UHGV virus genome: UHGV-0236300
Direction: 5' to 3' (one strand)
Length of the DNA: 64,000 bases
Origin: a virus
Under the pieces are notes generated by a model, which saw only the letters and a program-made list of their open reading frames with translations, had not been told where the DNA came from and ran no database searches. Shown one piece after another: positions 4,963 through 63,660 of this stretch; within the stretch, counting starts at the first letter, position 1, and each line of letters starts with the position of its first letter. Position numbers and translations under genes: made by a program.

Positions 4963-7386
4963 ATGAGCATGTGGTCGTTCGATTTTGAGGCCTCTGGCTT
5001 GCTGGAAGACCCAGATCTTTATTATCACTGCGGTTTGTTTAAAGAGCTGAATAAGAACCGTTTTATGCTGTTCCTTCCCCTAAATGACCGCACACACTAC
5101 TCTGAAGAGGATGTGGAGAAAGCTAAGAACTTCATTCTGGCAAAGAAGACCCTTTATACAGATTTTGAGGCTCGCATAGCAGATTTTTCAGAGTTGGAAG
5201 GCTGGCTTACAGGCAATTCAGACTGGTCACCTACGGCTTTGAACTGTCATAACTGCTACAGTTACGACTTTATGCTGATGGAAAGATTATCCGGTATTCA
5301 TTTTGATATGTTCCGTGATCCTAAATGCATGGGAACTATCAACGACCACCAGGTTAATCTGTTTGATACGTTAGCGATGAGTCGAATCTTGTGGCCTGAC
5401 CGCCCTTTGCCAAAAGGTTGTCCAGACGCAGTATTCAATCCAGTTACCAAGAAAATGCAGCCTGTTGGACCTCATGGTCTTATGGCATGGGGCTATGCCC
5501 TTGGTAACCAGAAAGTTCAAATCGATGACTGGCGGGAGCTTCCGCTGTGGAAGTATGTGGATCGTGTGTTCGAGGACGTTATCATTCAGGAGTTGCTCTG
5601 GAAGGAGTTGGTAGCGGAATCAAAAGGTGTATTCTACGGCAAATCTGACATGCAGAACTTTATGTACGATCCTGCCAAAGAGAAGCCGAAAGGCTTCAAG
5701 AAGATCACCTGGAAGAACGCATTACGCCGAGGCATGTTACAGCACTTCCTGATGGAGCTGCAGGCTCGACAGGGGGTGTATTTCGACATAGATGGGGCTA
5801 TTGCTTTACGTGATCGTTGCGATGCGTGGATGAAAGAGATCGCTGATCGTGTTGAACCACAGCTTCCTTTAAAAGAGTTATCAATGTCTCAGCGGCCTAA
5901 GTTCCCTGAAAAGCCGTTTAACCAGGATGGGACAATCTCCAATAATGGTTGGAAATGGTTAAAAGACAAGCTTGGCTATCCTGTGGACATGAGTGCTTTA
6001 GAATTTAAAGCCCCTCCTAAGCGAGCATTTACCTCCACAGGGGATGTAAGTAAGATGGGGATAAAATGGTGTGAAGAGATGGGCTGTAAAGACCCCGATA
6101 AGATGGCTGATTTCTTGAGGGGGTATATCAAAGGAACTTCTACACCACACCCTTTACCTAAAGAGCTGATGGATCAGGCGATAAGTGACCTACAGCAGAA
6201 GCGAATGCCTGACTGCAAGATACCCATGAAAATCAGCAATCAGGACGACATCAAGCGATACCTGATCAGTGCTGGTTGGCTCCCAACAATGTGGAGAACT
6301 AAGGATGTAACTAAGGATAGCAAGAAGAAAGCTTTACCTGATGCAGATGTTGATGCACGAGTATATGCATATATGGACGAGCTTTTGGAGTCAGAGTATT
6401 GTGACCTAATTATCAACTTCTGGAACAAAACTGATGCTAAGTTCCAGACAACTGTACATAAGTTCAGAAGCTTCCCTAACTCTGAAAGAATTAAAAAGGA
6501 AGTGTTCGGGAAAATACGTAGAAAAGCCAGAGCGCTTATTACTTCTCCGCAACTGAAAGATACGTTTGGGCACCTGTGCCCGAATCTTGAAAAATTGAAC
6601 GGAGAGATGGCTAAAGATATCGTTTTGTGGTTATCATTGCGAAACCGTAGATCGGTCCTTGATCCAATCAAGGAAGATAAGGTTGATACTGGTCTTCTTA
6701 ATCATCCACGTTTGAAGATTGACCACAAACTTCCTGCTAAAAGTTCTGGATTAACAAACACTTCCAGACAGAAACATAGTATTTGTGCAAACATGCCTAA
6801 ACCATCTCCTAAAGTGGTTATGGGTAAAGAGATGCGTAGTCTGTGGGGTGTTCCTCCGGGATACTTTGAGATCGGTATTGACGGGTCCAACTTAGAGCAG
6901 CTCATCGGGGCCTGGGGTGCCTTTGAGTTTGACAACGGTCTGTATTATGATGTTGTAAGTAACGGGGACGCGCACCAAAACAATGCTGAGGCATATACAA
7001 AAGTAGCAGGTAGAGAGGTGTCCCGTAACGATGGTAAACCTATCACGTATGGGGTTATGTATGGGGCACAAAAAGATAAAGTTGCAGATATGCTGGATAT
7101 CTCTCCCGAACTGGGGCAGAGAGTAATCGATGCTCTCTGGGATGCCAACCCAGGTCTTAAGGGGCGCAAAGAGGATCTGGAGAAATTCTGGGAAGCAACA
7201 GGTAAGAAATTTATCTACTCTTTTGACGGGCATGCTATTTGGACACGCTCTAAACACTCTTTGCTTAATGCATATCAGCAAAATGGCGGTGCATCACTGT
7301 GTGACCTAGTTGGGATACTCATGCACCACCAGATGGTGAAGCGTGGATGGTATGATGAGGGTGTTCGTCGTATTATTTATTACCAT
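4963..7386 (+). CDS. DNA polymerase, family A, exon 1 (proofreading domain, motifs A and B)
   Basis: Exo I FDFEASG; motif B RxxxKxxxYGVMYG; QQNGGASLCD segment like T7 QSAGALICK; frame hits stop at 7390-7392 just before the expected motif C. Confidence 0.85.
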
Positions 7387-10049: not shown

Positions 10050-10078
10050 TTGACAATAGAGATGGGGTCTAATATAAT
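10050..10078 (+). promoter_or_regulatory. sigma70 consensus promoter
   Basis: TTGACA, 17-nt spacer, TATAAT (perfect consensus). Confidence 0.6.
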
Positions 10079-10109
10079 GGCCCTATCAAAACGAAAGGAG
10101 ACCACAGCA

Positions 10110-10382
10110 ATGACCAAACAATATCAACGAATTAAAGCCAAGGTTAAGCCAGACTATCTGGAGAAGGACTCTGCTTTTCGGGACTGCACAGCAGACAAAA
10201 TTTACACAGGGGCCGTCCTGCTAAACGATGAATTTGAAGTGGATGTGCTAGGTAAGGAGGCTACTATCAAGGATGACCAGGGGGATTATGTTTGTTGCAC
10301 CACCAGAGAGCTGGAGGTATTAGAATACTTCGGTGAAATCTTCACCTCTCTTGATGATTACTTAGATGACGAGGAAGCGTGA
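10110..10382 (+). CDS. hypothetical acidic protein, paralog of 9792-10046
   Basis: ATG 10110 after AAAGGAGA; SAFRDCT and KDDQGDYVCCT motifs. Confidence 0.55.
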   Translation: MTKQYQRIKAKVKPDYLEKDSAFRDCTADKIYTGAVLLNDEFEVDVLGKEATIKDDQGDYVCCTTRELEVLEYFGEIFTSLDDYLDDEEA

Positions 10383-10783
10383 TGAAAAACATTTGGGATA
10401 TTAATATCTTTGAAGCCTCTGAGCTTGACGGTGCCGATGGAGTTATTATAGTCTCTGATGGAAAGGTAACATTGACCTCTGGACTGACCTATGAGGACAC
10501 TACCTACGCACTGGGAGATCTTGCCTTGTTGAAATCAACAGGTGACTCTCTGGAAGAACGTCTGCAAGGATTTGCCTTTAAAGAAGGCACAAGCACCACA
10601 CTGATGTGCACTACACGCACTGTTCAGTTGGGCAACGGGGTCTATATGGTCATTGCAGTGTGCCCCAAATTCAGCAACATCAATAAAGATGATGCTGACG
10701 CTGTCAACGACGTGGTTGTCCTCTTCGTTGGTGACGCTATGGCAGATCTGATGAATGCAGGAGAAGCAGCAAATGAAGACTGA
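10379..10783 (+). CDS. hypothetical acidic protein
   Basis: ATGA-coupled ORF, RBS GAGGAAG. Confidence 0.5.
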   Translation: MMKNIWDINIFEASELDGADGVIIVSDGKVTLTSGLTYEDTTYALGDLALLKSTGDSLEERLQGFAFKEGTSTTLMCTTRTVQLGNGVYMVIAVCPKFSNINKDDADAVNDVVVLFVGDAMADLMNAGEAANED

Positions 10784-11075
10784 AAACATCAACCCAACAG
10801 GATTCTTGAAAGTATACCGTGAACTGCTATATACTACAGAGGACAGTGTTCTAGAGTACCCAGAATACCTTTTGCTGTATAAGTATCTACAAGAAGCTGG
10901 TGAAAATCTACCAGTTAGTGCAGAAGGCGGTCCGAACTGGATATACAGCGCATGGAGAAAGGTTGACATTCTCCCAGATCCAGGAAAAGATATGGTAGTT
11001 TGGCAGCTTATCAACAACATCGGGATTCCAATCTTTGATGAAGCTGTTAAAATCTATTTTGAACTTGACGATTAA
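10773..11075 (+). CDS. hypothetical protein
   Basis: ATG 10773 after AGGAGAAG. Confidence 0.45.
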   Translation: MKTENINPTGFLKVYRELLYTTEDSVLEYPEYLLLYKYLQEAGENLPVSAEGGPNWIYSAWRKVDILPDPGKDMVVWQLINNIGIPIFDEAVKIYFELDD

Positions 11076-11092
11076 TATCAGGAGACCTTAAG

Positions 11093-11338
11093 ATGGCTGG
11101 AGTAGTTGCTCGCGCAGGACAGAAAGTACGTTGTGTTGAAGTTGGTTTCGGCGGCAAAGGTTGCCAGAACCTAACACAAGGTAAGGAATACGCTGTTATT
11201 TCTGGTGGTGGAGATAAGAGCATTGTGTTCGATGATCATATTCTGGATGCTGAAAACTTTGAAATATTTGACGATGATGGCGATCCGATCACCTGCCTGC
11301 TGAACGGAAGCTGGGGCACTTTCGAAGTAATTGGCTAA
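11093..11338 (+). CDS. hypothetical protein
   Basis: 81-aa ORF, RBS CAGGAGA. Confidence 0.5.
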   Translation: MAGVVARAGQKVRCVEVGFGGKGCQNLTQGKEYAVISGGGDKSIVFDDHILDAENFEIFDDDGDPITCLLNGSWGTFEVIG

Positions 11339-11375
11339 CAAATAGCTGTTGTAATTTACAGAAGGAGATGCTAAA

Positions 11376-11786
11376 ATGGTGTCTCCTTTATGTTGTTCAA
11401 ATAAAATCGGAGATTCCACAATGGAACAAATGAACGATCAAGCGTCGGTTGCGATGAACGAGCAAGAACAACCTCAAGAATTTTTCTTAGGGTTAAGCAA
11501 AGATCAAGTGTCTCTTCTGCTGGTACTTTCTTCTTTCATGGGGAGACTTCAGGAGCTCACACAACAACCAGAGGCTGAACAGTTATTCCAGGCTCTGCGA
11601 GAAGAAGAGAAATATCGTCGTTTGGATTATGCCTTAGGTTGGGTAGCTCAACAACGAGATATGCTAATGGCCCTTTCTGGGACGACGAGTTTTGCAATGG
11701 GCCTGTTAGCTCAAGTCCAGGACAAATTAATTCAAGCAGGGTTTGCACATACATCAACCACTAACGAAGAACAAGGAGATAAATAA
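11376..11786 (+). CDS. hypothetical protein
   Basis: 136-aa ORF, RBS GAAGGAGA. Confidence 0.5.
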   Translation: MVSPLCCSNKIGDSTMEQMNDQASVAMNEQEQPQEFFLGLSKDQVSLLLVLSSFMGRLQELTQQPEAEQLFQALREEEKYRRLDYALGWVAQQRDMLMALSGTTSFAMGLLAQVQDKLIQAGFAHTSTTNEEQGDK

Positions 11787-13012
11787 TGAGCGTTATCCAA
11801 CAATTTGCTAACCCGATGAATCCGCGTGAAACTGTTTTACTGGCTCACGGTATGATTAAACGTGTCAGCATCAAGCCCATTAAAGGTGCTGATCCTACAA
11901 CAGGTATTAAAACCACTGTGTGGCAAGGTAAGAAAATTGAATCCAGCCACACCATCTCTTTACTGATTTCTGAACTGGACTCCTCTGATAACCTGCTCCA
12001 AGGTGGTGAAGAAGTTTGGATCAGCATGGGTGATAAGCTGCTTAAGCCTGGTCATCAAGACTCCGTCTCTGTTAAAATTGATGACAAGTGGGAAACAGTA
12101 ACGCCAGGATGGATCGTAAATATCCCTTTAAAGGCAAATGAGCATAACGGTAAGACCTACTACAAAGGCTCACTGGCTAAAATGGTTAAGTTGGGGGCAG
12201 GAGAGGCTCCATCAGCTCCACAGCAACAAAAACAGCAACAAGGCACACAATCACAAGGCCAGAAGCAGAAACCTCAGCAGAATGCCAATCAGGACGTTTT
12301 ACGCATCTATGGTGATGTGACTCAGATTGTTGGTAACGTGGTTACTGTCAATGACCACAAGATTGGCGAAGGTGCTATGGTTGTCTCCGATGAGCAGCTT
12401 AAAGACCTGGTGGTTGGCGGTCGTGTTGCAGCTATTGTTGACAAAGACACCGGGAATATTATCAGCGGCTTCAAGGCCTACCCGCCTAAAGCAGAGAACG
12501 GTACACAAGGTTCTGGTGGTAAGCGTAAATCCTCTTACGACCCCATCGGTGTAGAGACAGGGCACAGTATCAATGCATTGCAGATCATCCTGGATCGCGG
12601 GTTTAAGATTGACAGCCCTTTAGATGTGGCTAAAACACTGCACGTGGTCACCATCGAGCTTAAGAAAGAGTACGCTCAAGCCACTAACCGAACTGAAGAT
12701 GAAGTAGGTGCCAGTGTTGGTAATGCGGTATTGAACGCTTGTCGCCGTATTGACAAGAAAACGAAAGTTGATGATTTTGCAGTAGCAATTACTGCAGAGG
12801 CAAAAGATGTCTTGACTAATCTTGCTGAACCGTTGTATGATTGGATCAAGAACGGTGCTGGAGCCACTGACCATCAAGAGCCTCAAGCTGCCAAACAGGA
12901 AGCCGCCCCACAGCAAAACACTGTAGACGCTCCTCCTGTAGATGATGCGGAAGACGACCCGATGGATCAGAATCCGGCACAGTACGCCTTTGATGATGAC
13001 ATACCTTTTTAA
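11786..13012 (+). CDS. putative ssDNA-binding protein with SSB-like acidic C-terminal tail
   Basis: Q-rich linker (PQQQKQQQGTQSQGQKQKPQQ) and C-terminal ...AFDDDIPF, identical to the E. coli SSB C-terminal hexapeptide; sits in the replication module. Confidence 0.5.
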   Translation: MSVIQQFANPMNPRETVLLAHGMIKRVSIKPIKGADPTTGIKTTVWQGKKIESSHTISLLISELDSSDNLLQGGEEVWISMGDKLLKPGHQDSVSVKIDDKWETVTPGWIVNIPLKANEHNGKTYYKGSLAKMVKLGAGEAPSAPQQQKQQQGTQSQGQKQKPQQNANQDVLRIYGDVTQIVGNVVTVNDHKIGEGAMVVSDEQLKDLVVGGRVAAIVDKDTGNIISGFKAYPPKAENGTQGSGGKRKSSYDPIGVETGHSINALQIILDRGFKIDSPLDVAKTLHVVTIELKKEYAQATNRTEDEVGASVGNAVLNACRRIDKKTKVDDFAVAITAEAKDVLTNLAEPLYDWIKNGAGATDHQEPQAAKQEAAPQQNTVDAPPVDDAEDDPMDQNPAQYAFDDDIPF

Positions 13013-13028
13013 CATCTAGTTAACATAG

Positions 13029-13056
13029 CCCTACCCGAAAGGGTGGGGCATTTTTG
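13029..13056 (+). terminator. rho-independent terminator
   Basis: Stem CCCTACCC/GGGTGGGG, GAAA loop, then CATTTTTG. Confidence 0.6.
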
Positions 13057-13074
13057 TATAGAGAGGACTGAAAA

Positions 13075-13491
13075 ATGACATTAGAAGATATCATTGTTAA
13101 ACCTGAGAACTATGACCAATACAATCTATCAACCCAATCTGTGGACCTTGGATGCGCCACTGTCAGTGCGTGGCTGGTTAACGGAAAAGAGTTGGATAAA
13201 TGCTTAGAAGCTCACATGACTGTGAACAAGTTCCTTGATGAAAATACTCACTGGCTGGAAGGTGCAGGTGTATACGCTTCGTGGCTAGAGAGTATGGGAT
13301 TTGACTACCAATCTGAAGAGGGGTGGTGGAGCTATCTGGCTATCTGTCCAGAGACATTGCAATGCTTCATGAAATATTCTGAAGATTTGGAGTACCGGGC
13401 GGTGGTTGACAGTGCTATTGCTCGTTATAGCCGTAAACCTTTTTCCCACGACATTAAAACTGTGGAAGAATTTGTTGAAGTTTTCTGTTGA
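13075..13491 (+). CDS. hypothetical protein
   Basis: 138-aa ORF, RBS GAGAGGA. Confidence 0.5.
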   Translation: MTLEDIIVKPENYDQYNLSTQSVDLGCATVSAWLVNGKELDKCLEAHMTVNKFLDENTHWLEGAGVYASWLESMGFDYQSEEGWWSYLAICPETLQCFMKYSEDLEYRAVVDSAIARYSRKPFSHDIKTVEEFVEVFC

Positions 13492-13587
13492 CACAGGTTG
13501 TAAGGTGTGCAATTATAACCTTGTAGAGCTGGAGGATGTGATGAACGAAGAAAACTGGGATGTGTAACTAACAGGAGGCCACTGCCC

Positions 13588-13785
13588 ATGATTTATCGAA
13601 TCCGTGTGAGAGAAGATGCACCAGGTTGTTACTTTGACTGGCGTGGGTGGTGGTTTCTCCACCCAATGGATGGACTCACAGATAGAATGCTGGATGCTGC
13701 CCTTTACACAGATACCGACATAGAGTATAATCTTTACTTGAAAGATGGTATCGATAACGGCCTGTTTGAAGCAATTCCTGCGTAA
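13588..13785 (+). CDS. hypothetical protein
   Basis: 65-aa ORF, RBS CAGGAGG. Confidence 0.45.
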   Translation: MIYRIRVREDAPGCYFDWRGWWFLHPMDGLTDRMLDAALYTDTDIEYNLYLKDGIDNGLFEAIPA

Positions 13786-13850
13786 GAGAATGTGATCGCC
13801 ATGTTTTATGATCTTCCTGTAGCACCACCTATTGATCCTGGAGAACTACG

Positions 13851-14276
13851 ATGATTTATGAAATGCCAAAACTGATTCGTGACGATGCACGAAACGCCCA
13901 CACCTTTATTATGGGCAAGCGCATGGATATTATTTGTCACAAAGACTTCTGGGAAGGGAGCTACTTCACAGAATATTTTGGAAAAATGGATGATGGCCTA
14001 CTGATCCAGTTTTACACCGATGCGGAAAACAACATTAGTTGGGAGTTCGAGACCGAAGATATCCATAAACTTTTCACCTTCCTTGGTATTAAGATTAAGG
14101 CCAAGTTTGAAGAGGGAGAGTGCGACGATTGTGGATTTTATGAGGTAACAGATTTCTATCTTCCGAGCGGTAAAAACCTTTACTATGAAAGCCACTTCGG
14201 TAACTCCAATATGCCACAGTGCTGGACTGAGTTTTTTGAAATTGTGGAAGAGGAGCTGGAATATCGTGATTATTGA
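13851..14276 (+). CDS. hypothetical protein
   Basis: 141-aa ORF, RBS CTGGAGA. Confidence 0.5.
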   Translation: MIYEMPKLIRDDARNAHTFIMGKRMDIICHKDFWEGSYFTEYFGKMDDGLLIQFYTDAENNISWEFETEDIHKLFTFLGIKIKAKFEEGECDDCGFYEVTDFYLPSGKNLYYESHFGNSNMPQCWTEFFEIVEEELEYRDY

Positions 14277-14724
14277 TACTGTAGAGGGAGATTTAATCTC
14301 CCTTTTTAAGAGCGGTGCTGGTCACCTGATCCACGGTTGTAACTGCTTCCACACAATGGGTAAGGGTGTAGCAAAACAGATTGCCCGTGAGTTCCCTCAA
14401 GCATTGGAAGCTGATAAAATGACTATGCACGGTTGCCTAAGTAAACTGGGCGCGTTCTCCCGCTGGGAGCACTTATCTCCGAGAGGTATTGTCTACGGAA
14501 TAAATCTGTATACTCAGTTCTACCCAGGGCCTAATGCTGAATATTTCTCAATACTGAAAGGATTTGAGCGAGTCAATGAAGTATTTGAGGGGTCGATTTT
14601 ACCATTCTACATCCCTAAGATCGGGTGCGGCATAGGCGGTTTGAAGTGGGAACATGTAGAGGACATTATTAACCTTGCCACTTTTGATATAGATATTATC
14701 GTGGTGGAGTACAAAGAGTGTTGA
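14266..14724 (+). CDS. macro-domain protein (ADP-ribose binding/hydrolase family)
   Basis: LIHGCNCFHTMGKGVAKQIAREF resembles the macro-domain Gly-rich ADP-ribose site; IPKIGCGIGGL resembles the second macro motif; GTG start 14266 after AGGAG, overlapping upstream stop. Confidence 0.6.
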   Translation: MIIDTVEGDLISLFKSGAGHLIHGCNCFHTMGKGVAKQIAREFPQALEADKMTMHGCLSKLGAFSRWEHLSPRGIVYGINLYTQFYPGPNAEYFSILKGFERVNEVFEGSILPFYIPKIGCGIGGLKWEHVEDIINLATFDIDIIVVEYKEC

Positions 14725-14749
14725 CAGCTATATTTTAAGGTGGTATAGT
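14721..14749 (+). promoter_or_regulatory. sigma70-like promoter
   Basis: TTGACA, 17-nt spacer, TATAGT. Confidence 0.55.
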
Positions 14750-14778
14750 CACCACAACGATTAAGACAGGGGAGCACT

Positions 14779-14973
14779 ATGGAGACTAAAATCTTAATTC
14801 TAGCTGTGATAGATACAACAGAAGGAGCCATGTTTGAATCTGCAGGAGGGTATTTCTACCTGCCCTACGGAAAAAGAACTTCCGAGCCGAGTAAAGATTC
14901 AATCCTCAAAGTGTTCCCGTGTGCTTTCTGGCTGGAGATTCTGGTAGAAGATTGCAGAGGCTTGGGGAGATAA
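14779..14973 (+). CDS. hypothetical protein
   Basis: 64-aa ORF, RBS AGGGGAG. Confidence 0.45.
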   Translation: METKILILAVIDTTEGAMFESAGGYFYLPYGKRTSEPSKDSILKVFPCAFWLEILVEDCRGLGR

Positions 14974-16599: not shown

Positions 16600-17050
16600 A
16601 CTTCCTCCTTTTGATATTTTACCTGGCCGGATATTTTAAAATTCTTAGAAAATCAGAAAATGGATCGAAAACTAAAATGGATTTTTCAAGACAGGCGCGA
16701 TAAGATGTGCTGCTCATTCTATCGTTCGCACCGTACTTTAAGTTACTATTCCAGATTTTCCGCACATACTCTCACCCTTCTACCAGAACTTTCCCAGCTT
16801 ACCTTTGACCCTTTATAACAATAAACCCATTATTCTCAGTAGGTTTTGATACATCTCTCTCAGTACTCGATCTGTTTTTCGTTTCAAAGATTGAATTTTC
16901 TGAAAATTTTTCTCGATAAATTTCTTAGTACTCGATCTGTTTTTCGTTTTCTGAATCAGATTTTCTGGAAATCGTTCCGGAGCTCGACCTGAAATTTTTG
17001 GGGACGAAATCGATTTTTCGTTTTCGGAAATGGATTTTTAAAATTTGTAT
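16600..17050. repeat. AT-rich non-coding region with short direct repeats
   Basis: AGTACTCGATCTGTTTTTCGTTT at 16861 and 16929; AAAATGGAT repeats near 16650; TTTTTCGTTTTC motifs. Confidence 0.5.
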
Positions 17051-17157
17051 ATGGAAATACTTAAGGAGGTATTATTTTATATAGAATTGTCACGGTAGGT
17101 AATTAGCATGCTAACTAAATTTATGAAATGCGAAAAGTTCTCATTTAGAATTTTGAA

Positions 17158-17350
17158 TGATAATCATTCTCGTTTGCAGAATAACGGGCACCCCCGGTGA
17201 TTGTCTCCCGGCCCCTGTTGCCCCGGCTTGTTATTATAGTATCACACAGGACAAAGAAAGCAAGGATTTTTTGCATAAATTTTTAAATGATAATGATAAC
17301 CGTTCTCATTTTATGCAGCGCCCATCCCCGGTGGTTGTCTCCCCCGTCAC
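17158..17350. repeat. duplicated ~65-nt element (two diverged copies)
   Basis: Both copies contain AATGATAAT...TTCTC...GCAG...CCCCGGTG.TTGTCTCCC; downstream CCTGGCGGGGCC repeats at 17389 and 17449. Confidence 0.5.
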
Positions 17351-17773
17351 CGGTGCCTGCCGTCCTTTCGATAGGTATATTGTGCCACCTGGCGGGGCCG
17401 CTGTCAACACTTTTCAAAAAAATTCTAACCTGATGCGCTAACCGTTGCAACCTGGCGGGGCCAGCCTGGCAGGGCTATGCTATAGGGTAGGCAACAACTG
17501 AAGAGGAGGTACAAAAATAAAAGGTAATATGATCCCTGGAAATGTAGCGATTAATGACGCTGAGGCTATCGCCCTGGTTGAAAAGGCTATGGCGGGAGCG
17601 TTGGAACATAAAGAAGAGTACGAAAAAATGATGGTTAACCTGGCAGGGGCGGCGGCTGGAGAATTCTGCCCAAAAAATAATTCTAACTAATGGTTGACAG
17701 CTCGGATAGTTCTGTTATTCTTATCCTCGCAAGGTGAACAACACCACACTAATTAACAGAGAGGATAAAAATC

Positions 17774-17971
17774 ATGAACGCCTACGGAATTAAAGTACGT
17801 CGCAACACTCGCCAGGCCGTCACCGATCAAATGATTTGCCAGGTGGACGTAACCATCAACAACGGGCAAGGCCTTTATAAATTCCGTCGCGGTCAGAGCT
17901 ACACCCGGCAACAGCTTAATCGTTGCGCCCTGACAAAAGGCCAGATCAACCACTGGTTTAATAAAAAATAA
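17774..17971 (+). CDS. hypothetical early protein
   Basis: 65-aa ORF, RBS GAGAGGA. Confidence 0.5.
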   Translation: MNAYGIKVRRNTRQAVTDQMICQVDVTINNGQGLYKFRRGQSYTRQQLNRCALTKGQINHWFNKK

Positions 17972-17974
17972 GTA

Positions 17975-18003
17975 TTGACATACAGTCTGACACCAAATAC
18001 ACT
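17975..18003 (+). promoter_or_regulatory. sigma70-like promoter
   Basis: TTGACA, 17-nt spacer, TACACT. Confidence 0.5.
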
Positions 18004-18035
18004 AAAAGCACAAAAGACACTAAGAGGATAAAATC

Positions 18036-18434
18036 ATGAAAACCACTACCTTTAATTTTGATAATGCGGACTTTTCTTTTTCTGATGTCAAGAACTGCCG
18101 CCGTGATCGTGGATTTTACAAGGCCTATAATCTGGTGGGCCTGGACGATGACAATAATTTGCACGAAGTAGCTGAGATCCGGTATTATGCCGCCGCCAGC
18201 GGGAACACTCAATACTGCGTTTTTTGGATTCACGACAACAAGAACAATAAGTACGGTTATACTGGCGGGAAGGCGAGCGGTCACGGTTACGATAAAGCTA
18301 ATGCAGCACTTGAGAGCGCATTAAATGCTATGGGGATCACTGCCAACGGCTGGATCTATGAAGAAGAGTTTTTGTCGGCACTTGCTAACCACCTGGGCTA
18401 TAAAAAGCACATTGTAACATGCGCCCACGAATAA
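18036..18434 (+). CDS. hypothetical early protein
   Basis: 132-aa ORF, RBS TAAGAGGA. Confidence 0.55.
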   Translation: MKTTTFNFDNADFSFSDVKNCRRDRGFYKAYNLVGLDDDNNLHEVAEIRYYAAASGNTQYCVFWIHDNKNNKYGYTGGKASGHGYDKANAALESALNAMGITANGWIYEEEFLSALANHLGYKKHIVTCAHE

Positions 18435-18440
18435 AAATTG

Positions 18441-18468
18441 TTGACACGCTGCAAAATTCAAGTAAACT
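18441..18468 (+). promoter_or_regulatory. sigma70-like promoter (weak -10) with conserved 5'UTR hairpin downstream
   Basis: TTGACA then TAAACT; hairpin GGCGGGAATGTTTCCCGCC at 18479-18497. Confidence 0.4.
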
Positions 18469-18516
18469 AATCACAAAAGGCGGGAATGTTTCCCGCCAAC
18501 ACAAAGGAAAAAGATC

Positions 18517-18921
18517 ATGAATAAGAACGTACGCCGCATCATGAATGAACTGGCAAACGATGAAAAAATTATTGATATGCATTTGGTGAACATTTGCCGC
18601 CGTTGTGTAACATATAACAACCGCGCCGCAAAAGCGCGTGAGATGAACGCAAAAGGCACCTTAAAGCCCTTCCAGGTGGTGGTAAAGGCCATCAAAGATG
18701 TAACTAATACGGCAAACCAGGTACAGGGGAACACCAACGAGAGTACCGATATTGATCCGGCTTACATCATGAAACGGATCCGGACCTGCAAGAACAAAGA
18801 GCAAGTGTATAACGTCATAGACTGGTTGGATTCTATGGGCGACGTGGTGTACAATAGGTTTTCTGCAGCTATCGAGATCCAGCTTGACAGGTTGGACGGG
18901 AAAGTACTGAAAACTTATTAA
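18517..18921 (+). CDS. hypothetical early protein
   Basis: 134-aa ORF, RBS AAAGGAAA. Confidence 0.55.
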   Translation: MNKNVRRIMNELANDEKIIDMHLVNICRRCVTYNNRAAKAREMNAKGTLKPFQVVVKAIKDVTNTANQVQGNTNESTDIDPAYIMKRIRTCKNKEQVYNVIDWLDSMGDVVYNRFSAAIEIQLDRLDGKVLKTY

Positions 18922-18924
18922 GTT

Positions 18925-18970
18925 TATTTTTAGATGGCCTTGACTCCAGGGCCATCAATAAAGTAAACTA
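18925..18970. repeat. conserved stem-loop element, copy 1 (possible terminator or RNA processing site)
   Basis: TTTATTTTTAGATGGCCTTGACTCCAGGGCCATCAATAAAGTAAACT, stem GATGGCC/GGCCATC; identical copy at 19544-19589. Confidence 0.5.
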
Positions 18971-19001
18971 GTCTCAACTAAGCGAAAAAGGGGGCTTTAA
19001 G

Positions 19002-19121
19002 ATGAGCACTACACGCCAATACACAAAGGTAACTATTATCGTTTGCGTTGTCGGTTACATCCTGGCGCAAATGTTAATGAGTAGCGCCAACAGTTTTGCA
19101 AAATTTTTCTTAAATTTTTAA
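19002..19121 (+). CDS. small hydrophobic peptide (39 aa)
   Basis: RBS AAAAGGGGG; MSTTRQYTKVTIIVCVVGYILAQMLMSS... predicted transmembrane. Confidence 0.35.
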   Translation: MSTTRQYTKVTIIVCVVGYILAQMLMSSANSFAKFFLNF

Positions 19122-19122
19122 T

Positions 19123-19176
19123 TGACAAGCTAACCCAAATCAGTATACTTAAGCACGTAAACGGGAAAACTTCCCA
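19123..19176 (+). promoter_or_regulatory. sigma70-like promoter plus conserved 5'UTR element
   Basis: TTGACA ... TATACT, then CACGTAAACGGGAAAACTTCCC (identical 22-mer also at 21013-21034). Confidence 0.5.
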
Positions 19177-19200
19177 GAACACACAAAAGGAGAAAACACC

Positions 19201-19533
19201 ATGACTACTATGACCGCCGCAGAAAAAGCTATTCAGGTTGCCGCACTGAAAAAACAGATCGCAGACCTTGAGAACAAGATCGATAACTTTGAAATCGACG
19301 AGGACAAGTACGACGAAAACTATGATGAATGGTTAGACGAGGTCTACGGCGAAATCATGATCGGAAACATTTCTTTTCTTCCGTCGCGTATCCTCAAGGA
19401 GCTAGATCCTATCGCTTACCGCTGCGGATTTAGCGACTACATCGACAGCCTGGATATTGAGGACGATGAAGAGTACCAAGAATTGCAAACAGAGTTGGAA
19501 GAAGCAAAAGAAGAGCTTGCAGAACTGGAATAA
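19201..19533 (+). CDS. hypothetical highly acidic early protein
   Basis: 110-aa ORF, RBS AAAGGAGAAA; D/E-rich. Confidence 0.55.
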   Translation: MTTMTAAEKAIQVAALKKQIADLENKIDNFEIDEDKYDENYDEWLDEVYGEIMIGNISFLPSRILKELDPIAYRCGFSDYIDSLDIEDDEEYQELQTELEEAKEELAELE

Positions 19534-19543
19534 AACGAGTAAA

Positions 19544-19589
19544 TTTATTTTTAGATGGCCTTGACTCCAGGGCCATCAATAAAGTAAAC
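19544..19589. repeat. conserved stem-loop element, copy 2
   Basis: Same 46-nt sequence as 18925-18970. Confidence 0.5.
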
Positions 19590-19628
19590 TTTACACTGTT
19601 AACACTGAACTAATGAGGAGTTAAAACC

Positions 19629-19874
19629 ATGGCAGCACTAATCACCAAATATTATGCGCCTACCAACACCAAAAGCGCCCGTATCATGGTAAAAGGCTTC
19701 GGACGTAAAAAGGTCTACACCTGGGATTATGCCTTAGATATGGAAGACAACTACACCAACGCAATGACCGATTTTATTAATGATCTGAATAAACAGATCT
19801 TAACCGACTACAAAGTGACCGATATTGCCTACGTCGGGGAAGGCGGGATCTGTTTTGTGGGCATTGTGAAATAG
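19629..19874 (+). CDS. hypothetical early protein
   Basis: 81-aa ORF, RBS TGAGGAG. Confidence 0.5.
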   Translation: MAALITKYYAPTNTKSARIMVKGFGRKKVYTWDYALDMEDNYTNAMTDFINDLNKQILTDYKVTDIAYVGEGGICFVGIVK

Positions 19875-19949
19875 TTATTTTTTCGGTGGTCCTGGCTGCA
19901 GGGCCATCTATAAAGATAATTTATTAACACCATGAAAGGAGAAAGTAAC

Positions 19950-20303
19950 ATGATCAGCGGTGCAAGTTTTATCATTGGCGCTATTGCTACGGCTTTAATT
20001 GTAAACAAGATCCAGGATAAAAAGGAAAGAGGAAGCACCGCCCTTGCAGAATATCCATTTTGGGCATTCAACGATAACGAAGATTATATTATAAAGTATA
20101 AAAATAAAGAAGGTGACCAAGTAACACCGCGACCGATCCCGGCTTACAAGATGCAGGAAACACTATACCGCCTGGAGGCGGGGGGCGCAAAAATTGTGGA
20201 CTTTTGGGGATACGATCACACAGATCAGGAAGTTATAAAGCGCCGTATCCGGGCTATTCAGGCCAATATTGAAGTTAGCAAGGGGGGAATATATGAAGAT
20301 TAA
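19950..20303 (+). CDS. hypothetical membrane-anchored protein
   Basis: ATG 19950 after AAAGGAGAAAG; N-terminal hydrophobic segment. Confidence 0.5.
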   Translation: MISGASFIIGAIATALIVNKIQDKKERGSTALAEYPFWAFNDNEDYIIKYKNKEGDQVTPRPIPAYKMQETLYRLEAGGAKIVDFWGYDHTDQEVIKRRIRAIQANIEVSKGGIYED

Positions 20304-20490
20304 TTTTGAGAAGATTGTAAAGCGATCTCATGATTCCGAAGAGTTGCCGGAACGCCGCCAGCGTAACAATAAACTGAATAAGCCAAAAAGATTTGGAAAG
20401 ATCTGGCGAAATCATTATGATCGTAAATTGCCTGGCCTACTTTTGGAACGTGAACGACAGGCAGAACGATACCGCCATAAAGACAAATAA
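20293..20490 (+). CDS. hypothetical basic protein
   Basis: ATG after AAGGGGGG; K/R-rich. Confidence 0.4.
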   Translation: MKINFEKIVKRSHDSEELPERRQRNNKLNKPKRFGKIWRNHYDRKLPGLLLERERQAERYRHKDK

Positions 20491-20498
20491 CAACCAAC

Positions 20499-20527
20499 GC
20501 CCCGCCATTGTGCGGGGCTTTTTATTT
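20499..20527 (+). terminator. rho-independent terminator
   Basis: Stem CCCCGC/GCGGGG, loop CATTGT, then TTTTTATTT. Confidence 0.6.
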
Positions 20528-20670
20528 CTATTCTACGAATAGCGCCCCTGGTTGGCCCTGTAAGCGCCAAAAAGGCCCCCACCTATGCAATCGCCCCTTT
20601 AACCTGAAAACATCGCCCAGGGCCGTTTTATGGCGTTAAAAATATTATTGGCAGTGATTTTATTTAAAGC

Positions 20671-20698
20671 TTGACATCTTAAACAGGTTAGCTATACT
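20671..20698 (+). promoter_or_regulatory. sigma70-like promoter
   Basis: TTGACA, 16-nt spacer, TATACT. Confidence 0.55.
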
Positions 20699-20730
20699 AA
20701 CCACATCAAAGAGAGAAAGGAGTAAACGCC

Positions 20731-20991
20731 ATGCGTAAATTAAAAAATTTTGATAAAGTTGATGTTATCCTGAATAATTTTTACTACTGCAACAACAAGG
20801 CCATTTGGTGGCGTGATAGTTCCACCGATAAAGTCAAGGCGCGCTTTCTCCAGGGGCACTGGCAAGGCCGTCCAGTGATTAAAATCATGGGGCAATTGGT
20901 AGCGTTTAAAAATTGCCGCCGTGTTGATGACGTTGAAGAGATTTTAAACATTTTGCGCCACAATAATTTAAAAAATAGTGTTGACAAGTAA
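20731..20991 (+). CDS. hypothetical early protein
   Basis: 86-aa ORF, RBS GAAAGGAG. Confidence 0.55.
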   Translation: MRKLKNFDKVDVILNNFYYCNNKAIWWRDSSTDKVKARFLQGHWQGRPVIKIMGQLVAFKNCRRVDDVEEILNILRHNNLKNSVDK

Positions 20992-21035
20992 ATCTCGATA
21001 AGTATACTTAAACACGTAAACGGGAAAACTTCCCG
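20981..21035 (+). promoter_or_regulatory. sigma70-like promoter plus conserved 5'UTR hairpin
   Basis: TTGACA, 16-nt spacer, TATACT, then CACGTAAACGGGAAAACTTCCCG. Confidence 0.55.
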
Positions 21036-21065
21036 CCACTAACAAAGAAAATAGGAGAAAATATC

Positions 21066-21689
21066 ATGACCACCGTTAACATTACCACAGGTTGCAATTT
21101 ATCTTTCGACGTGCTGACCGACGAACAAAAAGAAAAAGCTATTGAAATGGTCCGCGAAAGAGAAGAACACAGCGGAGAGGATTTTTTCGCAGAAAGTGTA
21201 ATTGAATATTATAAAGAACAAGTTTTTCCAGAGTACGGCCTTGAAGATACCGAAGTACATTGGTCCGGCTTTTGGTGCCAGGGTGACGGCGCGTCAATCA
21301 GTGCTGAAAACGTGGATTTAGAAAAATTCTTGCGTAAAGTAAAGGCCCTGACCAAGTTCCGATCAATTCGTCACTTGTTCGGCACAATGCACGATGGCGA
21401 GTTATCAGCCAGTATTGAACGCGACAAGTACAGCCATTACAGCCATGAAAACACTGTAAGCGGATACATTGATACCACCTGGCTAGATCTGACCGCCAAA
21501 CAAGAAAACAAAGTGGAAGACCTGGAAGAGCTGATCACCGAGACGGTACGGGAGCTATCCCGCAAGGTTTATGTAGACCTGGAGGAGTCCTATCTTGAAC
21601 AGTTTACTACCGAAAACCTGATCGGCCTTATTGAAGCCAATGATTGGCGGTTTGATGTGGATGAATATGGTGAGATGAGTTTTTCATAA
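21066..21689 (+). CDS. hypothetical early protein
   Basis: 207-aa ORF, RBS ATAGGAGAAA. Confidence 0.55.
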   Translation: MTTVNITTGCNLSFDVLTDEQKEKAIEMVREREEHSGEDFFAESVIEYYKEQVFPEYGLEDTEVHWSGFWCQGDGASISAENVDLEKFLRKVKALTKFRSIRHLFGTMHDGELSASIERDKYSHYSHENTVSGYIDTTWLDLTAKQENKVEDLEELITETVRELSRKVYVDLEESYLEQFTTENLIGLIEANDWRFDVDEYGEMSFS

Positions 21690-21780
21690 ATAAAGTGTTG
21701 CAATAATCTAAAAACCTGCTATATTTAAAACTCAAGGGGGTGAGATGACTTGCCTCCCACAAAACAAAGAGGAAAACATC

Positions 21781-22044
21781 ATGAAACGTCTTGACCAGCT
21801 CAAACTAGTTCAGTACATGGCTTACAGAATTCTTGAAGTCCAAAAAGGTAGCAAAAAAGAAGTTTGCGAGAAAGCGTACAAGATCTTTACTCGCAAAAAA
21901 GACGATTGGATGTTACGCCAGACCAAAAAAGCCGATATCTTGGGGTACCTGGAAGAAGAGATCCGGCTTGAAGAACAAGAAGAGATCCGCCGTAGTGAGG
22001 CAGATTATCAGGCAGCTTGGGAAAACTGGATGAGCAACAAATAA
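21781..22044 (+). CDS. hypothetical protein
   Basis: ATG 21781 after AAGAGGAAA. Confidence 0.5.
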   Translation: MKRLDQLKLVQYMAYRILEVQKGSKKEVCEKAYKIFTRKKDDWMLRQTKKADILGYLEEEIRLEEQEEIRRSEADYQAAWENWMSNK

Positions 22045-22110
22045 TACAACAGGTTGCATGGTCAGGGGCGATAAAGCCCCTTGATCACATAAAAATTATG
22101 CTATCCCTTG

Positions 22111-22139
22111 TTGACAGGGATCGGCAGTTTTGCTATATT
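22111..22139 (+). promoter_or_regulatory. sigma70-like promoter
   Basis: TTGACA, 17-nt spacer, TATATT. Confidence 0.55.
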
Positions 22140-22188
22140 CTTTTTTGAAGGGAAGTTGTAAGAAAATTAACTAAGAGGTAAAAACACC

Positions 22189-22608
22189 ATGAACATTAAA
22201 TCTGATAATCCGGCATATAGCTTTGATAACGCTTTTTGTCACGGTCCGGCGGCGAAAGGATTCGAAATCGATGGTAAACTAATTATTGTCAATGTTGACG
22301 GGGAAGAGGTTGCAGTATATCCGGTGGCAGACGTTAAAAGCCGTCTACAATGCCGCATAGATGTTACCGCCTATCAGCTTGATCCGGTCCGGGTAGTTGC
22401 CCTGGTCCTGGAAGAAGAAATTAAAGCAATGCACCACAGCAACAAGTTTATTGGTGACGCTCAAGATAATATGCAGGTATGCCGCTATAAAGTTAATGAA
22501 GTGCTTAAAGAGTACGGCTATAAGGATTTAATGATCAAGCGCGATGAAAAATTCCGCTACCGTAACGACCTGGCAAATCGGATTTTTGAAATATACGAAT
22601 CATTATAA
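22189..22608 (+). CDS. hypothetical early protein
   Basis: 139-aa ORF, RBS TAAGAGGT. Confidence 0.55.
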   Translation: MNIKSDNPAYSFDNAFCHGPAAKGFEIDGKLIIVNVDGEEVAVYPVADVKSRLQCRIDVTAYQLDPVRVVALVLEEEIKAMHHSNKFIGDAQDNMQVCRYKVNEVLKEYGYKDLMIKRDEKFRYRNDLANRIFEIYESL

Positions 22609-22626
22609 TTTCTTAACTGAATTATC

Positions 22627-22652
22627 AAGGGGCTTAAAGGCCCCTTTCTTTT
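22627..22652 (+). terminator. rho-independent terminator
   Basis: Stem GGGGC/GCCCC with TAAA loop, then TTTCTTTTT. Confidence 0.6.
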
Positions 22653-23263
22653 TGTCTGCTCTTCTCCTACCATAAACGGCCCTACCTGGCAAGTGGAATA
22701 ATTGACTAGCCATCAATCCCACATACTGTACAAATATACATGGAAAATAACTATTGCATAATCTTTCATTGTGTGGTAGCAGGGCCATTTTTACCCGTTT
22801 TCTCTCCCAAAAGTGCACGTAATGCCGCTATTGCACAAATTTTAACCTGATGCACATCTCCAATATCTTGTCAACAACTAAAAATCTTTATAAGTCATAC
22901 ACTTACACAGCATCGAAAGCGTGTTCTACGCGAAAAATCGAGTATAACTATAGCCGCCAGATCTCAGAATTCACGTACGCACGCCATTCTATAGTCTGCA
23001 AAGTATTTATTCCAACCACAGAATAACGGAATAGTCAATACCTGCATAAAATAATTATTCGTGTAAACTGCATAACATAAATCAGCTCAGGTGTCAACAT
23101 TTTTCGTAAACAGTTCGAAATTGTCACGATAAGTTATTATACACAGAGAAATCTTTAGTCGTCTAATGTTTACTGTACATTACTATACTGACTGGAATCA
23201 TTAGATGACTAAGAGAAAGATAAGAAATAATTAATAATGTAATTGTTTTACCTGTAACAATAA

Positions 23264-23440
23264 GGCAACTATGCAAACGAATGGCATGGCGCGACGGAGT
23301 CGCGACATAATATAAAAGCAGTAACAATCACCCCCGTGATAGTTTTTCTGCAATCTATTATTCAGATCATAGTTGCCTTGTATTTAGTTAATCATGACAT
23401 AACAAGCAAGGCAACTATAGATCTTCTAATAGTTGCCCTG
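23264..23440. repeat. CATAGTTGCC direct and inverted repeats
   Basis: Motif at 23264 (rev), 23368 (fwd), 23410 (rev), 23429 (fwd); 23368-23420 is a 13-bp-arm imperfect palindrome. Confidence 0.5.
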
Positions 23441-23529
23441 CTTTTATATTATGTCATAGATTGTTATCTTGTTAATTGTTTTCATGCAAACGAATGTCAT
23501 GGCTTATCATCTCTGTGTAAACAATTTGG

Positions 23530-23682: not shown

Positions 23683-24204
23683 CAAGTTTTTCTCCTCTTT
23701 GTCAAGTGCCGCATGAAAAATTTACAAACTGGTATGGTAGCATTTTTGCGGCCCTGTTTACATTCAGGAATGTATGTATAATCCTTGCTGTGTGGGCGTT
23801 TAGACGTCTGGACGGTCAGAAGTCAGCAGGTCAATATCTAATCTATTGGTTGCTAACTATATCCCACACAAATAGTAAGAAATATAATTGTTATGTGCGT
23901 AAACAGTAACTCATGTTATCAATCCCTGTATGTATCGCCAGTGGTGCGCATAATGGGTATTATGTTAAATTGCCCGTAATGATAACCATTCTCACAATGA
24001 TAGGTATTCTCATTCATCCCCACAAGATAGATTGCAAATGTTGTGCCACTGTGTGAACGGCCTCACCTATTAATTTGCCTCACTGCCTCGATATTTGAGA
24101 ATTATTATAAAAAATGAGAAGTATTCCCATTCCGTCCGCCTGGCAGCACTCCTGTAGGACAAGCACAACATCGGGGTATAACTGGACCTGTTCAGATATT
24201 TCTG

Positions 24205-63463: not shown

Positions 63464-63545
63464 ACCAGTAAAAACTTAAACATCTGTACTATAAGGATTT
63501 GTATGTTTTATGTTCACTATGGAACAGAGGTTAGTAACTGTCCGT

Positions 63546-63632
63546 GATACGGACACTACTGTCCGTCACGCGGACACATCTGCCCGTAATACGGACACTA
63601 ACTGTCCGTGATACGGACACATAAAGAATATA
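63546..63632. repeat. four tandem palindromic sites (operator/iteron array)
   Basis: ACTGTCCGTGATACGGACAC-type units at 63546, 63567, 63590, 63610 (about 21-22 bp spacing), each an inverted repeat GTCCG-N5-CGGAC. Confidence 0.7.
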
Positions 63633-63660
63633 ACTAAAATAACTAAATAATAAAAAATAA

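Follow-up and report, generated by a model that had tools for sequence, protein, structure and literature searches.

What do the repeated hairpins in a cluster of small phage genes do? This question is raised by a 64,000-nt stretch of the virus genome UHGV-0236300 (the window), whose region 17690-22652 carries a gene cluster with a two-tier hairpin of 49 nt in three of its gaps. Judged by its sequence, the phage is a Vequintavirus, that is, an rV5/FV3/V18-like coliphage, and the genomes of this genus (rV5, FV3, V18, B9-1, and more than 100 others) match the region at 94-97% DNA identity. Comparison with these relatives demonstrated the structure, strand specificity, purifying selection, and position of the hairpin, as well as a crossover within it in relatives. 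As to its role, we consider RNase III-type processing, in which the upper stem would remain as a protective 3' hairpin, to have a probability of roughly 45%.

Structure, conservation, and position of the 49-nt hairpin

The original prediction had described a 46-nt stem-loop occurring twice, with a variant near 19880. The pair was confirmed with 47 exact nucleotides (18919-18969 and 19540-19590, 98% identical), and so was the third copy (19871-19921, 73% identical); the true structure, however, proved to be larger, with 49 nt and 20 bp. It is built of a 10-bp AU-rich lower stem, a 2-nt/3-nt internal loop, a 10-bp GC-rich upper stem, and a tetraloop. The copies, designated stem-loop (SL) 1 to 3, are placed as follows relative to the open reading frames (ORFs), whose products are given in amino acids (aa).

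18921-18969, + strand: SL1, type A two-tier hairpin with an ACUC loop, beginning at the 134-aa ORF's stop codon, with the 39-aa ORF 32 nt further on
19542-19590, + strand: SL2, type A two-tier hairpin, between the 110-aa and 81-aa ORFs
19873-19921, + strand: SL3, type B (divergent) two-tier hairpin, between the 81-aa ORF and the ORF 19950-20303

The three copies folded identically, with free energies of -22 to -25 kcal/mol and z scores of -5.0 to -7.0 against shuffled sequences, and were among the approximately 15 most stable 60-nt segments of the 64 kb at just 35% G+C. RNAalifold independently gave the same two-tier fold. A covariance model scored 75-82 bits on the + strand vs 31-39 bits on the - strand and detected only these three copies in the window. 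SL3 retained all 20 pairs through two double and four one-sided changes. An alignment of 59 copies, 39 of them distinct, was made from 19 related loci and the window. Among the distinct copies, standard pairing was found in 98.5% of the cells, compared with 35-56% when the 3' partners were slid by 1-3 columns. Changes on both sides were seen at four lower-stem pairs, and the three variable upper-stem pairs changed via G-U alone, which fits the sense strand only.

Nucleotide diversity (pi) across 17 genomes was as follows.

Upper stems: 0.000-0.006
Internal loop: 0-0.05
Lower stems: 0.02-0.11
Tetraloops: 0.23-0.30
Codon positions 1, 2, and 3: 0.044, 0.024, and 0.154
Other intergenic DNA: 0.06-0.18

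The tetraloops were at least as variable as third codon positions, and the upper stems were almost invariant. Loop bases 1 and 2 were constrained (a purine, then a pyrimidine) in both types. From the diversity by site class and the sense-strand pairing, we therefore conclude that the 49-nt element is, on this comparative evidence, a functional sense-strand hairpin under strong purifying selection with a freely drifting apical loop.

In each case, the hairpin begins at the upstream stop codon or a few bases from it, and the next start codon lies 28-38 nt beyond its end. A fourth copy (SL4) occupies the same type of gap in rV5, FV3, and V18; it is missing from the window because the ORFs corresponding to FV3 ORFs 170-156 are missing there. 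The three copies of the window and the fourth copy of FV3 are all located in gaps without a strong (consensus) promoter.

The element was present in 121 phage records, each of them a Vequintavirus or a mislabelled Vequintavirus. Seventeen records named Campylobacter phage (e.g., MG065662 and MG065646) hold E. coli Vequintavirus sequence at 92-100% identity and are probably mislabelled or contaminated. A scan of IMG/VR with TGGNCNTGNNNNCAGGGCCA returned 120 stretches with no convincing copy by the covariance model and three weak matches (E 0.003-0.09), and the model did not find the element in 80 unrelated IMG/VR loci. A metagenome scan with CAGGGCCATCWATAAAG also returned 120 stretches; the model, run on 80 of them, found five real contigs, Vequintavirus-like, and no divergent homologues. 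Rfam, searched across the whole window with gathering thresholds and across 17400-22800 with E values of up to 1, gave nothing relevant and two chance-level matches at the 20499 terminator, and literature searches found no described hairpin repeats in rV5- or phAPEC8-like phages.

Proposed RNase III processing and other readings of the hairpin

A working model can be outlined as follows. The cluster would be the distal part of an early, host-RNA-polymerase-dependent unit, organized as a string of exchangeable mini-cassettes. Most small ORFs own a near-consensus sigma-70 promoter, three of these promoters with a short GC leader hairpin, and for genes without their own promoter the gap instead contains the 49-nt hairpin, beginning at the upstream stop codon. 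The hairpin would act as sense-strand RNA within the polycistronic transcripts from the promoters at 18441 and 19122 (named P194 and P192 after their rV5 counterparts). Host RNase III would bind the interrupted helix of approximately 22 bp and, much as it does at R0.3 to R1.3 in the early region of T7, cut it at the internal loop in its centre. In this way, the cistrons would be split apart, and the upstream message would end in the GC upper stem, a hairpin protecting its 3' end. Both the RNase III cleavage and the stabilising effect are what we infer from the features described below.

Processing signals of the T7 early type contain an interrupted double helix of approximately two turns (about 20-22 bp), and an ideal RNase III substrate is a 22-bp helix with the cleavage point at its centre (Nicholson review). 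In all three copies, the helix comprises 10 + 10 bp around the 2/3-nt loop, and its total length matches this ideal. The hairpins lie between ORFs, in sense orientation within the presumed transcripts; the closest promoter precedes them, and the closest terminator follows at 20499. The same folding tool was applied to the T7 sites: R0.3, R0.5, R1, and R1.1 had a 9- to 10-bp upper GC stem with a 4- to 5-nt loop and an asymmetric internal loop above a 5- to 9-bp AU-rich lower stem, and R1.3 had a longer, almost uninterrupted stem; over the five early sites, the upper GC stem measured 9-13 bp and the loop 3-5 nt. The 49-nt element resembles these sites as a repeated family of approximately 50 nt in the intercistronic gaps of a putative host-polymerase early operon. 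The likeness extends to the two tiers, with a GC-rich upper stem of approximately 10 bp, a variable 4- to 5-nt loop, and conserved stems, and to the central asymmetric internal loop above an AU-rich lower stem. In R1.1, the distal box consists of U-A and U-G, and the proximal optimum is G-C, A-U, and A-U; the proximal box as a whole is given as G-C, A-U/U-A, A-U, and A-U/U-A, with G-C disfavoured at position 2. The type A copies share with R1.1 the U-A and U-G beside the loop-closing pair, and these distal-box pairs were found in SL1, SL2, and SL4. Proximal-box position 2 is without a G-C pair in the register assumed here. An RNase III cleavage assay on the hairpins had originally been suggested. 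The RNase III idea suits the 49-nt element much better than the hairpins of the 5' untranslated regions (5'UTRs), whose stems of 5-8 bp are too short.

Several observations weigh against processing by RNase III. The internal loop is 2/3 nt, compared with 4/5 nt in T7. SL3 has C-G, not U-G, at the second distal-box pair, and the proximal positions are U-A, A-U (G-U in SL3), and G-C, off the R1.1 optimum, in a register that assumes cutting at the internal loop. RNase III does not normally require an invariant stem sequence, and the near-zero diversity of the upper stem could reflect a sequence-specific reader or gene conversion. Because the element is confined to one genus, the covariation appears to rest on few independent events. 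In addition, the type A copies can also be read as TTGACN-18-TAAACT and might act as promoters, and literature searches found no Vequintavirus transcript or cleavage data.

That promoter-like reading leads to the repeats known as PeSLs (promoter-early stem-loops), which two papers describe in T4-type phages only (Arbiol et al. 2010, PMC2839356; Comeau et al. 2014, PMC4122927). A composite of this type, in which the hairpin would attenuate or terminate read-through and the embedded TTGACN-18-TAAACT would restart transcription with RNase III uninvolved, seems unlikely to us. In its favour, a consensus scan detected TTGACT-18-TAAACT within SL1 and SL2, with the same -10 sequence (TAAACT) as the accepted promoter at 18441 and a PeSL-like T-rich stretch upstream of the -35-like box, and the cassette indels at these repeats agree with it as well. 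Furthermore, PeSL subclasses include stem-loops overlapping the -35 box, one of which matched rrnB T1 termination in a reporter (PMC2839356, PMC4122927). However, a U-tract after the hairpin is absent on both strands (AAUAAAG on +, UAAAAAU on -), and the hairpin is absent from the terminator scan. SL3 is without a -35-like box (CTGGYN at this position) but equally conserved, and a promoter alone would not call for the observed covariation between the 5' arm and the -10-like arm. The invariant AC of the loop need not mean a -35 box, because loop bases 1 and 2 are constrained in both types. Simple intrinsic termination was rejected: the + strand continues with AAUAAAGUAAAC and the - strand with UAAAAAUAAA (SL1 and SL2) or GAAAAAAUAA (SL3), so that neither strand provides a U-tract, and the scan lists 20499 and 22627 instead.

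If the hairpin were a passive stability element that blocks 3'-to-5' exonucleases or sets segmental decay without a specific endonuclease cut, in the manner of repetitive extragenic palindromes (REP) and further hairpins between cistrons, its folding energy, its rank among the most stable segments at low G+C, and its sense-strand specificity right after a stop codon would all be expected. A plain barrier, however, requires neither a conserved internal loop nor an invariant stem sequence, and a 3' end must first be made downstream, yet no terminator is located there; this explanation is improbable. Conservation of the upper stem and internal loop beyond pairing needs, the constraint on loop bases 1 and 2, and the limitation to one genus would suit an operator for a sequence-specific RNA-binding protein of phage or host, by which the early genes on either side would be shut off or coupled in translation. 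We regard such an operator as very improbable: the Shine-Dalgarno sequence and start codon 28-38 nt past the hairpin are not sequestered, no RNA-binding protein was recognisable nearby with PHROG and Pfam, and gene conversion between copies could account for part of the sequence identity. Even less credence is given to an element acting on the DNA level only, either a recombination hotspot or a selfish palindromic repeat kept by gene conversion with no role in expression. The documented crossover inside the repeat and the concerted evolution of SL1 and SL2 speak for it. Nevertheless, SL3 is unhomogenised yet has kept all its pairs via sense-only G-U and compensatory changes, the stems are frozen while the tetraloop drifts freely, and position and orientation relative to the genes are constant at all four sites.

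RNase III-type processing thus remains our preferred reading. The broader scenario, that rV5-type myoviruses, although unrelated to T7, independently evolved a T7-style splitting of early messages by host RNase III, with protective 3' hairpins as caps, and that the repeats double as recombination joints for swapping early ORFan cassettes, is conceivable, if somewhat doubtful.

Promoters, leader hairpins, and genes of the cluster

The pattern TTGACA-N16/17-TAnnnT occurs at seven + strand sites within the 5-kb region (17694, 17975, 18441, 19122, 20671, 20981, and 22111), and the whole window contains 27 matches vs 2.2 expected from shuffles. The original prediction of at least seven small genes behind TTGACA/16-17/TATACT-type promoters was borne out, with a weaker site at 21698 in addition; a small ORF begins 30-60 nt downstream of each of these sites. 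The promoters and terminators are listed below with their rV5 counterparts.

17694-17721, + strand: promoter TTGACA-16-TATTCT; P195A in Table S4 of the rV5 paper, which is P195B in GenBank DQ832317
17975-18003, + strand: promoter TTGACA-17-TACACT; P195
18441-18468, + strand: promoter TTGACA-16-TAAACT; P194
19122-19187, + strand: promoter TTGACA-16-TATACT and leader, copy 1 of a 66-nt duplication; P192
20499-20528, + strand: intrinsic terminator GCCCCGC-loop-GCGGGGC followed by TTTTTATTTC, predicted to end the P192 operon and annotated as a terminator in HdK5
20671-20698, + strand: promoter TTGACA-16-TATACT; P186
20981-21046, + strand: promoter TTGACA-16-TATACT and leader, copy 2 of the 66-nt duplication; P185
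21698-21757, + strand: weaker promoter TTGCAA-16-TATATT with TG and a 9-bp leader hairpin (21736-21757)
22111-22139, + strand: promoter in the P164 cassette; P164
22627-22646, + strand: intrinsic terminator; t164

P195A, P195, P194, P192, P186, P185, P164, and t164 were predicted in rV5 (Table S4 of Kropinski et al. 2013, PMC3606486), and the seven TTGACA promoters and the terminator t164 match these predictions one-to-one. The promoters are therefore not new, since the same rV5 sites were already predicted in 2013. In contrast, the 49-nt hairpins, the leader hairpins, and cassette recombination are all unmentioned in the rV5 paper (PMC3606486) and in GenBank record DQ832317. The genes had also been described as separated by hairpins or terminators; this is correct, but only 20499-20518 and 22627-22646 look like intrinsic terminators. 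The GC-rich stretch 20521-20665 folded no better than chance (z -0.14).

The 22-mer CACGTAAACGGGAAAACTTCCC, claimed to be identical in two 5'UTRs, was found exactly at 19154-19175 and 21013-21034 (0 expected by chance), and the related third hairpin was also found (CGGGAATGTTTCCCG at 18481-18495). The 22-mer is part of the 66-nt promoter and leader duplication (19122-19187 and 20981-21046, 80% identical). Its exact identity is restricted to this phage and V18, in which the P192 version has replaced the P185 leader over its 5' half; most relatives have ACACACAGGCGGGAAAACTTCCCGCC at the P185 leader instead. We read the shared 22-mer as the result of a recent, lineage-specific gene conversion and not as a conserved signal. 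The idea that it exerts shared post-transcriptional control was not upheld; only the short hairpin (GG)CGGGAA-NNN-TTCCCG(CC) is conserved among the P194, P192, and P185 leaders. These hairpins are as follows.

18479-18497, + strand: P194 leader hairpin GGCGGGAA-TGT-TTCCCGCC, 8 bp, dG -14.6, z -4.1; a 'putative terminator' in HdK5
19163-19175, + strand: P192 leader hairpin GGGAA-AAC-TTCCC, 5 bp
21021-21035, + strand: P185 leader hairpin CGGGAA-AAC-TTCCCG, 6 bp

If transcription starts approximately 7 nt past the -10 box, as predicted, the P194 hairpin begins at about +4 and those of P192 and P185 at about +7 to +9. Stabilising 5' stem-loops of the ompA-leader type reportedly leave no more than a few nucleotides unpaired at the 5' end of the mRNA, a description attributed to Emory, Bouvet and Belasco in 1992. 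Across the relatives, the stems of the leader hairpins are fixed and the loops variable, including reverse-complement flips from TGT to ACA and from AAC to GTT. The flips were seen with unchanged stems in five related loci (orthologues of 18479-18497 and 21019-21037), and they are the signature of palindrome inversion by template switching. Four of the eight promoters of the region are followed by a leader hairpin. As a general property of the promoters, such hairpins were rejected: the leaders of the 27 promoters had a mean fold of -4.9 kcal/mol vs a background of -5.2 kcal/mol. The palindrome GGCGGGAA..TTCCCGCC was also rejected as diagnostic, with 126 matches in unrelated viral contigs, about half of them beside T-runs; the bare palindrome is common in such contigs, often as a terminator. 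The hairpin at 18479 has a T-run on the - strand only. The leader hairpins could serve as 5' stabilisers, as PeSL-type attenuators, or, at 18479, as a terminator of antisense transcription.

The region is equivalent to rV5 ORFs 196 to approximately 185 plus ORF 164, and the cluster corresponds to the distal end of the transcription unit 10-1-238-164 of the rV5 authors (Kropinski et al. 2013, PMC3606486). It contains 12 small genes, every one on the + strand, with products of 39-207 aa.

17774-17971, + strand: 65-aa ORF behind promoter 17694
18036-18434, + strand: 132-aa ORF behind promoter 17975
18517-18921, + strand: 134-aa ORF behind promoter 18441
19002-19121, + strand: 39-aa ORF, SL1 in the gap 5' of it
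19201-19533, + strand: 110-aa ORF behind promoter 19122
19629-19874, + strand: 81-aa ORF, SL2 in the gap 5' of it
19950-20303, + strand: ORF, SL3 in the gap 5' of it
20293-20490, + strand: 65-aa T7 gp1.1-family ORF (PF08200, E 2e-11), whose start overlaps the ORF before it
20731-20991, + strand: 86-aa ORF behind promoter 20671
21066-21689, + strand: 207-aa ORF behind promoter 20981
21781-22044, + strand: 87-aa ORF behind the weaker promoter 21698
22189-22608, + strand: 139-aa ORF behind promoter 22111

PHROG placed all 12 ORFs in families of unknown function. In Pfam, the single match above the cut-off among the cluster proteins was that of ORF 20293-20490 to 'Bacteriophage 1.1 protein'; a homologue of a T7 class I gene (gp1.1 family) is present here in a large myovirus. 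Relatives of the 81-aa protein occur in Seuratvirus phages and also in Klebsiella phages, in the latter close to one end of 40-kb genomes. A protein-guided locus search of IMG/VR gave 2 loci only. The reading of the cluster as an early or host-takeover module is a fair one, based on the ORFan cluster, the strong sigma-70-type promoters, and the lytic coliphage. An early small-ORF cluster behind such promoters is plausible, and its early timing and transcript boundaries are presumed; 'host takeover', however, stays a label because no protein of the cluster has a known function.

Two non-coding stretches flank the cluster (16.5-17.5 kb and 22.6-24.3 kb). The possibility that they form a bracketing inverted repeat was rejected, the best match being 18 nt (E 0.006). 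Fur-box-like sequences were found in both stretches (17153-17171, 17289-17307, and 23977-23994): GATAATGATAACCGTTCTC departs from the 19-bp Fur consensus at 3 positions (expectation, 0.05 matches per window), and TTGAATGATAATCATTCTC and TAATGATAACCATTCTCA are similar. Each of the first two Fur-box-like sites is followed by a GC-rich, possibly structured stretch; no Rfam family matched. Upstream of the cluster, three imperfect direct repeats of approximately 47-65 nt (containing TCAGTACTCGATCTGTTTTTCGTTT) lie at 16853-17038 in an ORF-free stretch; the rV5 paper marks an ORF-free stretch of its genome map merely as 'non-coding' (PMC3606486). Downstream of the module, the non-coding stretch contains a long near-perfect hairpin of approximately 17 bp at 23365-23456, which folds at -25 to -28 kcal/mol on either strand. 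The GTCCGT...ACGGAC hairpin repeats at 63520-63640 have the most stable folds in the window, at -34 kcal/mol per 60 nt.

Cassette recombination and comparison with known systems

Because the same 50-nt sequence recurs three to four times within a few kb, the 49-nt hairpin is also a substrate for homologous recombination. The relatives ECP32 and magaca are without the 39-aa gene, P192, and the 110-aa gene, and their lone hairpin has the left flank of SL1 and the right flank of SL2; cassette loss by a crossover inside the repeat is thus documented at the level of genome comparison. SL1 and SL2 had the same loop within a genome in 10 of 16 cases vs 4.4 expected (permutation test, uncorrected for phylogeny). 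Recombination between copies would homogenise them and delete or move the genes between them, as PeSLs do. Two further cassette indels were mapped to repeated regulatory motifs.

21766-21786, + strand: junction of a 4.7-kb deletion relative to FV3, with the crossover in the shared Shine-Dalgarno/ATG microhomology AAAGAGGAAAACATCATGAAA
22052-22620, + strand: P164 cassette without an FV3 counterpart (rV5 counterparts P164/t164), holding promoter 22111 and the 139-aa ORF

The deletion relative to FV3 removed ORFs 170-156, including the fourth hairpin copy (10077-14817 of the FV3 locus). The P164 cassette is flanked by two similar GC hairpins (22062-22084 and 22627-22646).

If RNase III processing of the 49-nt hairpin is true, the classic strategy of T7 would be convergent and not a T7 peculiarity. 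Vequintaviruses, some of which belong to the BASEL reference set, are common therapy and biocontrol phages. So far, promoter motifs have been the only source of predictions about how they express their genes, literature searches having found no Vequintavirus transcriptomics, and a short, near-invariant RNA hairpin makes the shaping of early messages in these phages open to simple experiment. The crossover inside the repeat carries the PeSL idea, that regulatory repeats are the joints of early-gene shuffling, beyond the T4-like phages, and such shuffling helps to account for the ORFan patchwork of the region. Since precedents are known for all the components, the advance is an incremental one.

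Like PeSLs, the repeats of the cluster are intergenic motifs with a sigma-70 promoter and an AT-rich upstream stretch, and their stem-loop, made of a G-run and a C-run, precedes, follows, or lies inside the promoter. They are likewise concentrated among ORFans in a plastic region, with chimeric repeats at indel junctions between close relatives. A/T runs precede several of the seven TTGACA promoters, and P192 and P185 constitute a 66-nt repeat; for the 49-nt element, the promoter side of this likeness is partial: type A has TTGACN-18-TAAACT, and SL3 is without a -35-like box. Stem-loops are provided by the leader hairpins behind P194, P192, P185, and 21698, and SL1 and SL2 overlap the -35-like box. 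In contrast to PeSLs, the 49-nt element has a promoter that is weak at best, with none in SL3, and is a long two-tier hairpin with RNA-specific G-U pairs, not a simple terminator-like stem. In PeSLs, moreover, the stem-loop terminates transcription and the repeats are excised as mini-circles. The cluster is an analogue of PeSLs and not a member of the described set, because the phage is a Vequintavirus and not T4-type. As far as genome comparison goes, the cassette indels at the repeats give direct support to the PeSL model on its evolutionary side.

The closest likeness to the leader hairpins was seen in the Phapecoctavirus ESCO5, where TTGACA-N17-TAnnnT, CACATAGGGCGGGAA-loop-TTCCCGCC, a Shine-Dalgarno sequence, and ATG occur in this order five times in 12 kb, with a stem that agrees in sequence and spacing with those of the P194 and P185 leaders. 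Its early region (5560-7180 of the ESCO5 locus) is tiled with near-identical promoter/hairpin cassettes. On the other hand, ESCO5 belongs to another subfamily (Stephanstirmvirinae), and the covariance model found no copy of the 49-nt two-tier element in it. The T7 early sites differ from the 49-nt element in that they have no sequence homology to it; its lower stem is longer and more regular, and its phage is a 137-kb myovirus without its own RNA polymerase. The 49-nt hairpin is undescribed so far yet unsurprising, resembling a T7-type RNase III site in its shape and position and a PeSL in its evolutionary behaviour.

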